This document shows positions 48,611 to 57,179 of a stretch of 58,232 nt of DNA, one piece after another. This DNA is from Candidatus Woesearchaeota archaeon (GTDB taxonomy: Archaea; Nanobdellota; Nanobdellia; Woesearchaeales; GW2011-AR9): assembly GCA_018696595.1 (NCBI GenBank), contig JABHQW010000006.1:1-58232 (forward strand), read 5' to 3'. How positions within the stretch are numbered: position 1 is the stretch's first letter; each line of letters opens with the position of its first letter. A program made the translations under genes and the position numbers. The notes under the pieces are model-generated. The model was not told the DNA's origin and did not search any database. It worked only from the letters and a program-made list of their open reading frames with translations.

Positions 48611-49474
48611 ATGATGAAGAAAATAATTATTTTTAGTTTAATCCTAGCAATCATGTTTAGTTTCTCAGCCATAGGGGCAAGTAATATTGATGGCCTAACG
48701 AACGAATTAGAAGGAAAAGAGATCCCGGCCCCACTAGGGACTTTGTTTGGAGATGAAAGGATTAATTTACATTTTGCATTAGATAATGGAGAAGAATTAG
48801 TTTTAGGATTAATAACAGAAGATGATAAGTTTAAAAGTCTTGAAGTTGGAGAACTAGAAAAACCTTCATTAAATGTTTACACTACAGAAACGGTAGTTAA
48901 AGCAATAGAGAATTCTGATAATCCCCCTTCAGTATTAAAAAATGCTCTTGAAAATGGAGAGATCACATATAAAGCAGTTGGTTTTATGAATAAAATTAAA
49001 TTTGCAGTGCTTTCAGTAGTAATGAAATTCCTTGATGGTGCAGAAGAAAAAGCAGAAAAAGAAACCAAAGAGGATGAACCCGTTAAAGAAGAAGTTCCAG
49101 AAACAGAAGAAACAGTAGATGAAACAGAAACCGTCGCAATGGTTGAAGAAGAAACAACTGAAGAAGTGAAAATAGAAGAACCCGTTGTTGTAGAACCAAG
49201 TGGACCAAAAACCCATATTGTAAAATTAATTGATGGTGGTTTTGGAAATGCATCAATCACAATTAAAGTAGGAGACACTGTTGAATGGCACAATGAAAGA
49301 GACGGAAACACAAAGAAAGCATTAATTATAGGGTCACAACAATGTTTCAAAATTAAAAGTAGTATATTTGAATGGGGAGATTACTACTCGTGGACATTTG
49401 AGAAAGCAGAAACTTGTACAATTATTGATGGAATATTTACAACAGCATCAATGAAAATAATTGTTAAGGAGTGA
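48611..49474 (+). CDS. Secreted protein with an acidic linker and C-terminal cupredoxin-like domain
   Basis: Signal peptide; SITIKVGDTVEWHN...YYSWTF...MKIIVK. Confidence 0.8.
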   Translation: MMKKIIIFSLILAIMFSFSAIGASNIDGLTNELEGKEIPAPLGTLFGDERINLHFALDNGEELVLGLITEDDKFKSLEVGELEKPSLNVYTTETVVKAIENSDNPPSVLKNALENGEITYKAVGFMNKIKFAVLSVVMKFLDGAEEKAEKETKEDEPVKEEVPETEETVDETETVAMVEEETTEEVKIEEPVVVEPSGPKTHIVKLIDGGFGNASITIKVGDTVEWHNERDGNTKKALIIGSQQCFKIKSSIFEWGDYYSWTFEKAETCTIIDGIFTTASMKIIVKE

Positions 49475-50478
49475 TAATGAAAATTGGCTTTTTTGAATTA
49501 GAACCTTGGGAAAAGAAAGAGATTAGAAAAGTTTTTTCCAAGGACAAATTATTTTTCTCAGAAAAAAGATTAACATTAAGAAACGTAAGGAGGTATAAAG
49601 AGTTAGAAGCAATTGCAATCTTTGTACATTCTGAGATTGATAAAGAAGTTCTTAAAAAGTTACCAAAACTAAAATATATTACAACAATGAGTACTGGTTT
49701 TAATCATATTGACCTAGAAGAATGTAAAAAAAGAAGAATTTCTGTTAGTAATGTTCCAACATACGGAGAAAACACAGTAGCCGAACATACATTTGCTTTA
49801 ATCTTAGCATTAAGTAGAAAAATTGTTGATTGTGTTAATAGAACCCACTTAGGAAGTTTTCGTTTAGAAGGATTAAGAGGATTTGATTTAAAAGATAAAA
49901 CCATTGGGGTTGTTGGCGGAGGAAATATTGGCAAACATGTTATTCGCATGGCTAAAGGGTTTGAAATGAATGTTTTAGTATTTGATATTTACAAAGACAT
50001 AAAATTAGCAAAAAAGCTAGGATACAAATATGCAAGTATGGAAAAAATGCTTAAAGAATCAGATGTAATTACACTTCATGTTCCAGAAAACAAACACACC
50101 CATCATTTAATTGATAAAGATAAATTAACATTAATGAAAAAGTCTGCGGTTCTAATTAATACTTCTCGTGGTGGTATTGTTGACACAAAAGCTTTAGTTA
50201 ATGCTTTGAAAAAGAAAAAGATTGCAGGGGCAGCTTTAGATGTTTTAGAGGATGAATGTAAAATAATTGAAGAAACTCAATTATTGAAAAAAGAGTTTGG
50301 TGGCAGGTGCGATTTACATAAAATTGTAGAAAAGCATGCTTTACTTAAAATGAAGAACGTTATTGTCACACCCCATAATGCTTTCAATACACATGAAGCT
50401 TTAATGCGGATATTACAAACAACTATTAAGAATCTTGCTAGTTTTAAGAATGGAAGAAAGATTAATGAGGTCAAGTAA
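49471..50478 (+). CDS. D-2-hydroxyacid dehydrogenase (D-lactate dehydrogenase-like)
   Basis: STGFNHID, VAEHT, GGGNIG, LINTSRG, LDVLEDE, TPHNAF. Confidence 0.93.
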   Translation: MIMKIGFFELEPWEKKEIRKVFSKDKLFFSEKRLTLRNVRRYKELEAIAIFVHSEIDKEVLKKLPKLKYITTMSTGFNHIDLEECKKRRISVSNVPTYGENTVAEHTFALILALSRKIVDCVNRTHLGSFRLEGLRGFDLKDKTIGVVGGGNIGKHVIRMAKGFEMNVLVFDIYKDIKLAKKLGYKYASMEKMLKESDVITLHVPENKHTHHLIDKDKLTLMKKSAVLINTSRGGIVDTKALVNALKKKKIAGAALDVLEDECKIIEETQLLKKEFGGRCDLHKIVEKHALLKMKNVIVTPHNAFNTHEALMRILQTTIKNLASFKNGRKINEVK

Positions 50479-52764: not shown

Positions 52765-53400
52765 ATGGAAGAAAAGAGCCATCAATCAGAAATACTGACA
52801 ATCATGTTTACTGATATTGTAGGTTATACTTCCACCACAGCAAGATTAAACAGAAAAGAGTTTAATCAACTGCATGATGTTTTTGATAACATTTCTCTAC
52901 CAATATTTAAGAAACACTCAGGTAACGTAATTAAGAAAATTGGAGATTCTTTCATGGTCACATTTAAATCGGCCACAGAAGGAGTTTTGTGCGGAATAGA
53001 TTTACAAAAATCGTTTCAAAAACATCACAAAGAAAATCAATCAAGAAACCCCCTTAGAATTAGGGTCGCCCTACATTCGGGAGAAGTTCTTTTGAGAGAC
53101 AATGATGTTTATGGAGATGCAGTAAATTTATCTGCCAGAGTTGAAGGCCTAACACAAGCAGGAGAGATTTACTTTACAGAATCAGTTGCCCAATCAATGA
53201 ACAAGAATGAAATTGATTTTTTAGATTTAGGATACACCCCAGTTAAAGGTTTTTCTGAACCAATAAGAATCTTTAAAGTTAAATGGAAAAGAGATCAAAG
53301 AAGAATCCTTTGGGGTTGGATTTTGGAAACATTTCTGATAGTTTTATTAATTAGTGTAATAATTGTCGCCGCTGGTTTTTTGTATAAGACTTATTTTTAA
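52765..53400 (+). CDS. Class III adenylate cyclase with C-terminal TM, paralog 1
   Basis: FTDIVGYT, KKIGDSF, HSGEV, DVYGDAVNLSARVE. Confidence 0.92.
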   Translation: MEEKSHQSEILTIMFTDIVGYTSTTARLNRKEFNQLHDVFDNISLPIFKKHSGNVIKKIGDSFMVTFKSATEGVLCGIDLQKSFQKHHKENQSRNPLRIRVALHSGEVLLRDNDVYGDAVNLSARVEGLTQAGEIYFTESVAQSMNKNEIDFLDLGYTPVKGFSEPIRIFKVKWKRDQRRILWGWILETFLIVLLISVIIVAAGFLYKTYF

Positions 53401-53438: not shown

Positions 53439-54095
53439 TTGGCAAAAAAAAATAAATCAGAAGTATTAACAGTAATGTTTGTGGACATAGTTAGTTACAC
53501 CAAAACTACCGCCAATCTTGATAGAGAGAACTTCAATTATTTACATGATGTCTTTGACACTATTTGCCATAAGTTCTTCAAAGAACATGAAGGAAAAGTA
53601 ATTAAGAAAATAGGGGATGCTTTTTTAGTAACATTCAAATCTGCGACTGAAGCGGTTCTTTGTGGAATAAATTTACAGAATTCCTTTTATGAGTATAATC
53701 AAAAACACAGAAAACAAGACCCATTAAAAATTAGGGTTGCATTACATTCAGGAGAAATTTTGCATAGGCATGGAGATATTTATGGAGATGCAGTAAATAC
53801 TGCTGCCAGAGTTGAAGGAATAACAAAAGCAAATCATGTTGTTTTCAGTGAACCAGTTTATGCTGCCATGAACAAGAATGAAATGGATTATATTTATCTT
53901 GGTGCAAAAAAACTGAAAGGTTTACAACGTCCGTTAAAAGTGTTTAGAGTAAAAACAAAAATGGACGAAATCCTAGATAGAAAAAAGAGGACTAGAAAGT
54001 TTTTCAACAAAATAAAAAGAAAAATTGTTGGGGTTGTTGTTTTAGGGGTTGTTGTAATAGCAATATTTCTTTTAGTAAAGTATTTGTTTGGTTAG
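53439..54095 (+). CDS. Class III adenylate cyclase with C-terminal TM, paralog 2
   Basis: FVDIVSYT, KKIGDAF, DIYGDAVNTAARVE; TTG start supported by TATA 53407-53414. Confidence 0.92.
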   Translation: MAKKNKSEVLTVMFVDIVSYTKTTANLDRENFNYLHDVFDTICHKFFKEHEGKVIKKIGDAFLVTFKSATEAVLCGINLQNSFYEYNQKHRKQDPLKIRVALHSGEILHRHGDIYGDAVNTAARVEGITKANHVVFSEPVYAAMNKNEMDYIYLGAKKLKGLQRPLKVFRVKTKMDEILDRKKRTRKFFNKIKRKIVGVVVLGVVVIAIFLLVKYLFG

Positions 54096-55401: not shown

Positions 55402-56064
55402 ATGACAAATTTACAATTACCTTCAAATTTACTTGCAATTATGGCCCATGAAGATGATGAGGTTGGTGGATGTGGTGGCCTTTTAATAAAGAATCAACAA
55501 CTAGAAGGAGATTCACATGTAATTTGTTTTGGTGGTTCTGACCCAAAACGAGCAAAAGAATTTGAAGCTGCTTGTAAATTAATGGGAGTTTCAAGTCATC
55601 AACTGTTGGGTTATAGTGAACAAGATTATGACCAAAACAAATTAGAAAGAATAATTCAGATAAGAGATATTATTCTGAGAATAAAACCAGACTATGTTTT
55701 AACACATCGGTCTGCTGGTGATTATCATTTAAATCACCAAACAGTTTCAGAAATAGTAAAAAGATCCGCAATTATGGCAAATACTGCCAAAGAAGGAGTT
55801 AGAGTTAAAGGAATACTTTATACTGAGACACATTCACTTCATTCAGTAGTGCATGAATTAGTAGATGTAAGTGATGTCCAAGAATCTATTGAACAAGCAC
55901 TTCTATGTCATGAAAGTCAAATTAGTAAAAACGATGGATATTATTTAAAGTTAATTAGCAAAAGAAATAGTTTAAGAGGTTTACAAAACGGAACCCATTT
56001 TGCTGAAGCTTATCAATTTGAACCATTAGAATTAGTGGGGAATTTTCATAAGACTATAAAATGA
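55402..56064 (+). CDS. PIG-L/LmbE family deacetylase (BshB-like) 1
   Basis: AHEDDEVGGCGG, DYHLNH, ALLCHESQ, RG...AEAY. Confidence 0.88.
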   Translation: MTNLQLPSNLLAIMAHEDDEVGGCGGLLIKNQQLEGDSHVICFGGSDPKRAKEFEAACKLMGVSSHQLLGYSEQDYDQNKLERIIQIRDIILRIKPDYVLTHRSAGDYHLNHQTVSEIVKRSAIMANTAKEGVRVKGILYTETHSLHSVVHELVDVSDVQESIEQALLCHESQISKNDGYYLKLISKRNSLRGLQNGTHFAEAYQFEPLELVGNFHKTIK

Positions 56065-57179
56065 AACAATTAGCAGATTTATTAAAATCAGAAGAAGGAA
56101 CAGAATTCTTAAGGGAAAATGAAATTTATACTCATCCTGCTCAGTTTACAACCCAATTAAAAAAACCAACAGTTTTGTTTGGTGCAAAACAAGACCCAAT
56201 TGATAAGCCAGTAGTTTATGCAGGACAACAAATATATTTAGATTATACTGCTTCAGTTAGAGATAAAATCCAATTATTAGCAGAACTGGATGGACCAATT
56301 GACAGTTTTTTCTTATGGTTAGACACTGATAGAAGCGGATCAGATAAACTGATTAGTAAAATCATTTGGCCAGTGGATGAAACACAAGTAAGTATTAGTA
56401 TATCGACAGGGAAAAATAAAAATATAGAAACGCGGTTTGTAAAATTAGATCAAAAACAAATAAGAAGTTCTATAGATCGGCTAGGTACATTAATCCGACA
56501 AACCAACCCATCTCAGAAAGCTATTGAAAGTTATTCCGCATTAAGAAAACTATTTTCTGAAACCAATGCGAGTACTTTAGCCGAACTTAATTTAGAGGTC
56601 ACTAGTTTTTTAGTTGAAGATTATCTTCAAGTAAGCATAAATAATATAATTGCTTCTCAATTAATTCAAGACCCTATAGTTCTTGATGCCCTTAAATGTT
56701 TAATATCTCAAAGAGAAGGTGTCATAGAGGCATATAATAATAGTGTTCAAAAATTAGTTGAGTTAGGCATAGACCCACAAGTTAGAAAGCTTCCCCCATT
56801 TTACTTGCCCCTACATTTTTCTTGTGACCAAGACAATACTAGGGTCAATCTAACTTATAATAAAAAGGGAGAAGACCATTATGCCGCGGGCGAATGTAAA
56901 TGTGGTAAAACTTTTGAGTTCTTTATTGGTTCTAATACTAACGTTAATTTAGATGAAGTTGTGTCAACAAACAGATGGAGTCCTGATGTGACTTTGCCCT
57001 TATTACTACGAGAAGGTATTAGTGGTGCAATTGTTGGAAAAAGTTCTGCTTTGTATGGAATTGTTTTAAATCAAGTTCTCAAAGAAGCATTATCTAAAAC
57101 GCCAGTTCCAATGTTAGTGCCAAATTCTTCTGGAGACACAAATCCACAAAGTTTAATACATAATTATATAAATCAATAA
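56061..57179 (+). CDS. Divergent, C-terminally shortened BshC-like putative ligase
   Basis: GQQ...K...FLW, LDQ...ID, WSPDV.LP...G...Y...PMLVP are collinear with BshC motifs (by eye); ATGA-type overlap with the upstream gene. Confidence 0.65.
   Translation: MKQLADLLKSEEGTEFLRENEIYTHPAQFTTQLKKPTVLFGAKQDPIDKPVVYAGQQIYLDYTASVRDKIQLLAELDGPIDSFFLWLDTDRSGSDKLISKIIWPVDETQVSISISTGKNKNIETRFVKLDQKQIRSSIDRLGTLIRQTNPSQKAIESYSALRKLFSETNASTLAELNLEVTSFLVEDYLQVSINNIIASQLIQDPIVLDALKCLISQREGVIEAYNNSVQKLVELGIDPQVRKLPPFYLPLHFSCDQDNTRVNLTYNKKGEDHYAAGECKCGKTFEFFIGSNTNVNLDEVVSTNRWSPDVTLPLLLREGISGAIVGKSSALYGIVLNQVLKEALSKTPVPMLVPNSSGDTNPQSLIHNYINQ

Follow-up and report, generated by a model that had tools for sequence, protein, structure and literature searches.

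The closest described relative of the protein studied here is BshC, the enzyme of the last step of bacillithiol synthesis. This is the only step of the pathway that has not been reproduced in vitro, and no activated cysteine donor has been identified for the enzyme (PMC5790435, PMC4360819). MshC, a ligase that joins cysteine to glucosaminyl-inositol (GlcN-Ins), is described as working without tRNA and adenylating the cysteine (PMC2922099). A BLAST survey from 2025 found no archaeon with BshA, BshB and BshC (PMC12719100), and an earlier review placed the archaeal homologues of BshA and BshC mainly in Asgard archaea (PMC7278568). Our searches of the BshC and bacillithiol literature turned up neither a short BshC-like family nor a substitute of the ATP-grasp type. 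Here we analysed a protein of 372 residues, called X, that is encoded on a DNA stretch of 58,232 nucleotides from a Candidatus Woesearchaeota archaeon (contig JABHQW010000006.1; the whole stretch is referred to as the window). The gene lies in a tight operon with a bshA-type gene and two genes of the PIG-L deacetylase family. An original prediction, made from the letters of the DNA, had described X as a minimal BshC-like ligase. Our results show that X is homologous to BshC, and we consider it fairly probable that X is the third enzyme of a bacillithiol-type pathway, where it would most likely add cysteine to glucosamine (GlcN)-malate.

Homology of X to BshC

The gene of X is not a chance open reading frame, since more than 216 homologues of full length, about 380 residues each, came up in a word-index search. 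The predicted frame is therefore real. These relatives showed 38-44% identity, all were annotated as hypothetical and none had a Pfam domain. When the family profile was run with hmmsearch against 1.84 billion representative proteins, 167 were retrieved at E ≤ 1e-3. Pfam and NCBIfam scans of X gave nothing at E ≤ 1 beyond noise, including the BshC models PF10079 and TIGR03998.

X was modelled with AlphaFold (AF2) from an alignment of 28 sequences (predicted local distance difference test, pLDDT, 89.6; predicted template modelling score, pTM, 0.88). The top Foldseek match of the model was B. subtilis BshC (4WBD; E 1e-12, TM 0.61), followed by class I lysyl-tRNA synthetase (LysRS) at 7e-9. An exhaustive comparison with VIA-align also placed 4WBD first, with a Z of 28.2 and a root-mean-square deviation of 3.1 over 343 of the 372 residues at 12% identity, and class I LysRS (PDB 1IRX) second with a Z of 19.2 over 267 residues. 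MshC and cysteinyl-tRNA synthetase (CysRS) scored about 10.6, within the range of about 8-11 that was seen for them and the other class I synthetases. The list of fold matches was filled by class I LysRS, CysRS, GluRS, ArgRS, MetRS, TyrRS and TrpRS (Z 8-19), and cyclodipeptide synthases also appeared (Z about 7). The ESM Atlas gave the same order, with unannotated Chloroflexota clusters first, then archaeal clusters bearing PF10079 (TM 0.85) and then LysRS-I. X has a class I-type Rossmann fold of the HUP class, and its Rossmann-like core carries connecting-peptide insertions as in 4WBD.

The sequence searches reached BshC proteins as well. The hmmsearch of the 1.84 billion proteins with the X profile retrieved P0380 (E 3.2e-7) and P0385 (E 1.5e-6), which both match PF10079 above its cut-off, and this library-wide match settles the homology of X and BshC. 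Among the PDB sequences, BshC was not reached by phmmer or hmmsearch with X or with the profile of the 28-sequence alignment (A1). An hhalign comparison of A1 with 25 canonical BshC sequences was collinear over 283 columns and set motif on motif, but with an E of 0.01 and a probability of 4% it is on its own insufficient as proof of homology. A new BshC-related subfamily had been predicted, to be judged by profile and structure comparison; the significant similarity found by hmmsearch, Foldseek and VIA-align, together with the lack of a matching Pfam or NCBIfam model, bore this out. On these data X represents a separate family that is related to BshC, minimal in its architecture and marked by motifs of its own.

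The hhalign alignment stops at BshC column 383 of 550, and the coiled coil (PF24850), which was found in all canonical BshC proteins listed, is therefore absent from X. According to the original prediction, X ends just after the equivalent of the PVMP stretch. The last core strand indeed aligns as PVPMLVP with PPVMPR and the coiled coil is missing, yet the structural alignment extends to BshC residue 515. Because it reaches this far, the short C-terminal helix of the X model (57153-57176) is probably equivalent to the BshC helix that comes after the coiled coil. X looks like a BshC from which the coiled-coil hairpin was excised.

The B. subtilis motifs on which the prediction had relied are correct, as was checked on the 4WBD chain, which contains GGQQAGLL..YTIHK, FWVAGEDHD, SLDQEKCAAWID, RFSNNVVTRP, GPGEINY and PPVMPR. 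Aligned as claimed were GQQ with GQQ, FFLWLDTDRS with FWVAGEDHD in the profile comparison, RWSPDV with RFSNNV and GKSSALY with GPGEINY. The lysines that follow GQQ in the two proteins fall in different columns, and the proposed match of KLDQKQ and SLDQEK is about 5 residues out of register in the profile alignment and is not a motif at the family level.

When 29 family members from three clades were compared, D88, D90 and R91 of the FFLWLDTDRSGSD motif were invariant in all 29. The other invariant residues were E123, R125, S199, Y248-L249-P250, R261, A275, R305-W306-S307, D309, V310 and P313 (the last six in RWSPDVTLP), S321, G322, then G326, S328, S329 and Y332 in GKSSALY, and P350 and P354; residue 327 varies between K, R and Q. 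These roughly 25 residues are maintained despite an identity of 28-45% between the clades, and they cluster in loops at the C-terminal edge of the Rossmann sheet. R261 is aligned with the invariant R284 of BshC. Only GQQ, a tryptophan, one acidic residue, R261, S307, Y332 and the P..P strand are shared with BshC, and the full set of invariant BshC motifs (GQQ..K, W.Q.EDHD, S..RP..QD, GGPGE..Y and PQER) is not found in X. The HIGH and KMSKS signatures are also missing; the loop after strand 1 (GQQIYLDY) contains no HIGH-type histidine, and GKSS resembles KMSKS only partially. Since the canonical BshC signature is largely replaced, one could regard X as a non-catalytic relic, or as a protein that regulates the PIG-L enzymes or serves them as a scaffold. 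We regard this as highly improbable, because the invariant residues line the edge of the Rossmann sheet at low overall identity and the gene order is kept across phyla.

A possible zinc knuckle had been predicted in the beta-rich insertion. In the 28 close relatives of alignment A1 (the Chloroflexota-type set), C255, C279, C281 and H273 are invariant. Most Actinomycetota keep the three cysteines but not H273, and in the alphaproteobacterial clade, the Myxococcota member and others the cysteines are replaced. Because whole clades are without them, we read the cluster as a clade-specific structural element and not as a universal catalytic one. The knuckle is plausible for X and does not hold as a feature of the whole family. 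It is plausible that the Cys3(His) cluster binds zinc as a structural knuckle near the active site, where in this protein it would probably brace the beta insertion, and that it is dispensable in some lineages. A catalytic zinc that binds a thiolate, of the kind found in CysRS and MshC, was considered as a universal feature and was rejected on the same ground.

Operon context and distribution

The bacterial X genes were examined in 29 species-level loci from Chloroflexota, 'Bacteroidota', Zixibacteria, Actinomycetota, Myxococcota, a metagenome-assembled genome (MAG) labelled Kuenenia and Alphaproteobacteria. In most of them X is located directly downstream of a GT4 glycosyltransferase gene and directly upstream of a PIG-L gene, so that X is co-located with bshA- and bshB-type genes in most of these loci, as it is in the window. 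The sampled GT4 proteins linked to X scored 209-321 bits on the BshA model TIGR03999 (cut-off 273.7), and the sampled bacterial PIG-L proteins scored 239-268 bits on the BshB1 model TIGR04001 (cut-off 182.5). Canonical BshC (PF10079) was searched for in six frames through whole genomes, with positive controls, and was absent from 19 of the 20 X-bearing genomes tested. The same search of the archaeal host genome of the window, which is 97% complete, found nothing. Roseicella aquatilis NE82, an alphaproteobacterium, has the X operon and no BshC. The position of X between BshA- and BshB1-class genes in hosts without canonical BshC is what one would expect of an enzyme that takes over the third step, and it points to the same step in the same pathway.

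The family is sporadic, as no X homologue was present in the 39 nearest archaeal genomes and no further X was found in 200 randomly sampled Chloroflexota genomes. In the phylogeny, X of the window forms a long branch nested in a Chloroflexota-type clade (support 96/93). Longer relatives with X fused to another domain were not found by the word-index search, which is weak evidence on this point. Several relatives are 440-470 residues long. One of them, P0349 with 449 residues, matched the X profile at an E of 1e-18 and had no Pfam domain; its locus (L055:2193-8068) has the order PIG-L/NEW3, GT4, X' and PIG-L.

In the archaeon, the bshA/PIG-L/X/PIG-L operon (Table 1) is translationally coupled and has the composition of the host. 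The ATG of X shares 4 bases with the stop codon of the upstream PIG-L gene (55402-56064), and the GC content of about 32% is uniform along the contig, including the operon, and equals the host value. The host genome has 1.19 Mb in 8 contigs, and its rRNA operon gave top scores with the archaeal small and large subunit models. On the same contig a wyosine-formation gene (TYW1/Taw1-type) and a DUF483 gene are encoded, both of which we take to be archaeal-type markers. The BshA of the window is 53% identical to the BshA-type protein of an archaeon of the same order (G035) and about 27% identical to the bacterial X-linked BshA proteins, and the second PIG-L shares 36% identity with its counterpart in the G035 cluster. 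We also weighed whether the contig is a contaminant of the archaeal bin, and discarded this in view of the uniform GC content, the archaeal-type markers on the contig and the 53% identity of BshA to a protein from the same order. Both PIG-L proteins of the window retain AH(E/P)DDE (AHEDDE in paralogue 1) and the distal histidine, and the metal ligands are kept.

Table 1. Genes of the operon and features of X in the window
Feature	Position	Strand	Remarks
bshA-type GT4 glycosyltransferase, 387 residues	54236-55399	+	Operon gene 1; TIGR03999 thiol_BshA 307 bits (cut-off 273.7)
PIG-L/LmbE-family de-N-acetylase paralogue 1, 220 residues	55402-56064	+	Pfam PIG-L E 3e-18
X, compact BshC-like protein, 372 residues	56061-57179	+	Third gene of the tight four-gene operon
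PIG-L/LmbE-family de-N-acetylase paralogue 2, 233 residues	57195-57896	+	Pfam PIG-L E 3e-22
GQQ motif after strand 1, position of the class I HIGH loop	56223-56231	+	Aligned to invariant GQQ of BshC; conserved family-wide
FFLWLDTDRSGSD motif	56307-56345	+	Aligned to BshC FWLQTEDHD; D90 on E122, R91 on D123
Beta-rich insertion with YLP, R261, C255/C279/C281 and H273	56802-56933	+	Four strands in model
RWSPDVTLP motif	56973-56999	+	Aligned to BshC FSTSALLRP (RFSNNVVTRP in B. subtilis)
GKSSALY, helix N-terminus in model	57036-57056	+	Aligned to BshC GGPGEIAY
PVPMLVP, last core strand	57102-57122	+	Aligned to BshC MPLIVPR; followed by an 18-residue tail with one helix (57153-57176)

Other genes were observed around X. 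A cNMP-binding domain is encoded within 8 kb in 19 of the 29 loci (for example L006:3655-6756, L019:9974-11635 and L016:9229-11466). In 17 of the 29 the operon adjoins a protein of about 1030 residues with PIG-L, NEW3 (NPCBM-associated) and cNMP_binding domains, and other loci have MFS-cNMP or SulP-STAS-cNMP genes. In the window, two class III adenylate/guanylate cyclase genes are arranged in tandem just upstream of bshA (52765-53400 and 53439-54095, + strand), and each encoded protein ends in a C-terminal membrane segment. This suggests a recurrent link of the X operon to cyclic-nucleotide signalling, and cyclic nucleotides might regulate the pathway in many of these hosts. A D-isomer-specific 2-hydroxyacid dehydrogenase is encoded a few genes upstream of the operon (49471-50478, + strand). 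In several Anaerolineae-type loci (L004:3545-7360, also L009, L011, L012 and L030; cluster c8) a fusion protein of about 1270-1330 residues, composed of FHA, indoleamine 2,3-dioxygenase, FAD/NAD-binding reductase and cytochrome b5 parts, is encoded directly upstream of X, with a small CBS-domain gene alongside, upstream. The alphaproteobacterial-type clade, in which X has no Cys cluster, has a conserved extra operon gene for about 370-395 residues with no Pfam or NCBIfam match (L020:9955-11070 and L027:4954-6138, also L023, L025 and L029).

The protein of about 1030 residues bears on another possible role of X, the decoration of an amino sugar in a glycan or glycolipid of the cell envelope, by which no soluble metabolite would be made. 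Its NEW3 domain is named for its association with alpha-galactosidase, and it adjoins the operon in more than half of the loci. However, neither a signal peptide nor a membrane segment was recognised in X, the operon is not flanked by envelope-glycan genes in the window, and the GT4 scores at the level of the BshA equivalog, which implies malate as the acceptor. An envelope role is in our estimation very unlikely.

The ligase slot and the proposed reaction of X

Three archaea of the order to which the host belongs have a related cluster with a different third enzyme. G035 and G342 show the order GT4/PIG-L/ligase and G339 the order GT4/PIG-L/PIG-L/ligase (L043:3170-6199; L054:3758-6679, - strand; L053:5263-8910). 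The third protein of G035 has 376 residues, and its GT4 is of the BshA class (281 bits on TIGR03999). We call the third-slot protein an ATP-grasp carboxylate-amine ligase because ATPgrasp_Ter matched all three proteins (best E 9e-6), the top Atlas feature matches were all ATP-grasp families (0.98) and an ExN motif is present in the consensus of their alignment (A4). The AF2 model of this protein, computed from an alignment of 3 sequences, had a pLDDT of 43 and was too poor for a structure search. No homologue of the ATP-grasp ligase was found in the genome of the window. Since the archaea of the same order carry this ligase where the window has X, X fills the ligase slot, and this gives independent support that X performs a carboxylate-amine ligation on a deacetylated aminosugar. 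This is most simply explained by an archaeal GT4/PIG-L/ligase operon in which a BshC-like gene from bacteria took the place of the ligase gene; the donor would have been a bacterium of the Chloroflexota type. Apparently, no BshA/BshB-type pathway in which an unrelated ATP-grasp enzyme takes the third step has been described before.

From the operon and the model, the following reaction sequence can be proposed. BshA would couple N-acetylglucosamine (GlcNAc) and L-malate, a PIG-L deacetylase would expose the 2-amino group, and X would then ligate an amino acid, most likely L-cysteine, to GlcN-malate by forming an amide. The carboxylate would presumably be activated with ATP, as in MshC. X itself would be a remote BshC homologue that is cut down to a Rossmann core like that of the class I aminoacyl-tRNA synthetases, without the coiled-coil dimerisation hairpin. 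Its predicted pocket would be formed by the GQQ loop, the DxDR and ExR motifs, R261 on the beta insertion, RWSxDV and the G(K/R)SS helix cap.

Several observations weigh against a bacillithiol-type third step. The two PIG-L proteins of the window reached only 62.8 bits (paralogue 1) and 76.8 bits (paralogue 2) on TIGR04001, both below the cut-off of 182.5, and both have lost the aspartate of the HPDH motif, which reads HLNH in paralogue 1 and HPHH in paralogue 2; HPDH was present in all five bacterial X-linked BshB1 proteins compared. The EDHD, GGPGE and C-terminal PQER motifs of BshC are replaced or absent in X, so that the substrate or the donor could differ. G048, a Myxococcota MAG of 10.8 Mb, is the one tested genome that contains both X and canonical BshC. 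Bacilliredoxin (TIGR04191) was not found in the genome of the window, and YpdA/Bdr (TIGR04018) was above its cut-off neither there nor in any of the 10 X-bearing bacteria searched, although one match came close with 313 bits. With these markers missing, a classical recycled bacillithiol redox buffer is uncorroborated. Several hosts are Actinomycetota or Alphaproteobacteria, groups that are commonly associated with mycothiol or glutathione. Finally, since BshC was never reconstituted in vitro, the analogy with X is based on genetics and not on a known mechanism. The product of X may be bacillithiol in a different use, or a related aminoacyl-GlcN-malate.

Some of these points bear on a different donor, as the original prediction had proposed with the transfer of another acyl or aminoacyl group. 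X would then have the same ligase role in the same operon and place another amino acid or acyl group on the deacetylated GlcN-glycoside, giving a non-thiol GlcN-malate conjugate. The exchange of EDHD for DTDR and of GGPGE for G(K/R/Q)SS, the mostly missing recycling markers and the hosts from groups with other thiols would fit such an enzyme, as would the ATP-grasp ligase of unassigned specificity that the related archaea have in the same slot. Still, nothing that we found supports another group as such. The neighbours of X are of the BshA and BshB1 class, at or near the equivalog cut-offs, the general lack of canonical BshC in the hosts is what a functional replacement predicts, and no particular alternative donor is indicated by the X sequence. 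We therefore judge a different donor to be unlikely.

A further alternative concerns the mechanism. X could be an aminoacyl-tRNA-dependent transferase similar to the cyclodipeptide synthases, which would take cysteine from Cys-tRNA(Cys) without an activation by ATP. The appearance of cyclodipeptide synthases among the fold matches, the absence of HIGH, the partial KMSKS-like motif and the glutamine that can occupy residue 327 are in line with this route. An activity with ATP and cysteine was also never shown for BshC, and reviews propose an unidentified activated cysteine (PMC5790435). The archaeal BshC-like protein P0380 (551 residues, with PF10079; L056:4302-7656) is encoded directly downstream of a cysteinyl-tRNA synthetase gene; this neighbourhood, seen at a single locus, may be a hint on the cysteine donor of BshC-type enzymes. 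On the other hand, the model of X contains no anticodon-binding or other evident RNA-binding domain, and the enzyme in the same slot of the related archaea is an ATP-grasp ligase, a fold that uses ATP directly. The invariant Ser-Ser pair at the N-terminus of a helix would fit the binding of a phosphate, and MshC, the closest characterised analogue, adenylates cysteine independently of tRNA (PMC2922099). Taken together, a tRNA-dependent transfer is distinctly unlikely, and we continue to favour the addition of cysteine with ATP-dependent activation.

A bolder possibility, which we put forward only tentatively, is that X acts on its own as a monomeric Cys:GlcN-malate ligase and would be active in vitro, which has not been achieved with canonical BshC. 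If this is true, the last step of bacillithiol synthesis would be settled, and bacillithiol-type thiols would occur in unexpected lineages, in archaea of DPANN size, in Anaerolineae and in some Actinomycetota and Alphaproteobacteria.

Comparison with known systems

A natural version of the catalytic core would offer a smaller and possibly more tractable enzyme for the BshC reaction, and Roseicella aquatilis NE82, as a named strain, provides a direct experimental entry. Surveys that are based on BLAST or on hidden Markov models (HMMs) would under-count the bacillithiol-type pathway. That related archaea place an ATP-grasp ligase at this position of the operon is a separate, evolutionary line of evidence for a carboxylate-amine ligation as the third step.

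BshC (YllA; 4WBD; PF10079 and PF24850; TIGR03998) and X have in common the Rossmann-like core with its connecting-peptide insertions (Z 28.2), the genomic linkage to BshA and BshB and a collinear series of anchors, namely GQQ, W86, D90/E122, R261/R284, S307/S323, Y332/Y349 and the final P..P strand. They differ in length, with 372 residues in X and about 540 in BshC, and their identity is only 12-18%. X is without the PF24850 hairpin, has DTDR in place of EDHD and GKSS in place of GGPGE, lacks PQER and has gained the Cys cluster in most of its clades.

MshC has HIGH and KMSKS motifs and a catalytic zinc that binds the cysteine thiolate. Like X, MshC (PDB 3C8Z) has a domain of the class I synthetase type, and it ligates an amino acid to an aminosugar after the action of a GT4 and a PIG-L deacetylase, which makes it a functional analogue of X (Z 10.6; PMC2922099). 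In contrast to X, it is a close paralogue of CysRS (PMC2922099); X has no HIGH, and some of its clades do without the Cys cluster. Class I LysRS (PDB 1IRX; PF01921) shares the catalytic domain as the second-best structural match, but at an identity of 13-14%, and X lacks its anticodon-binding domain and HIGH. The clusters of G035, G342 and G339 have the operon architecture of the window with a ligase gene in the third position, whereas their ligase is an unrelated ATP-grasp carboxylate-amine ligase.

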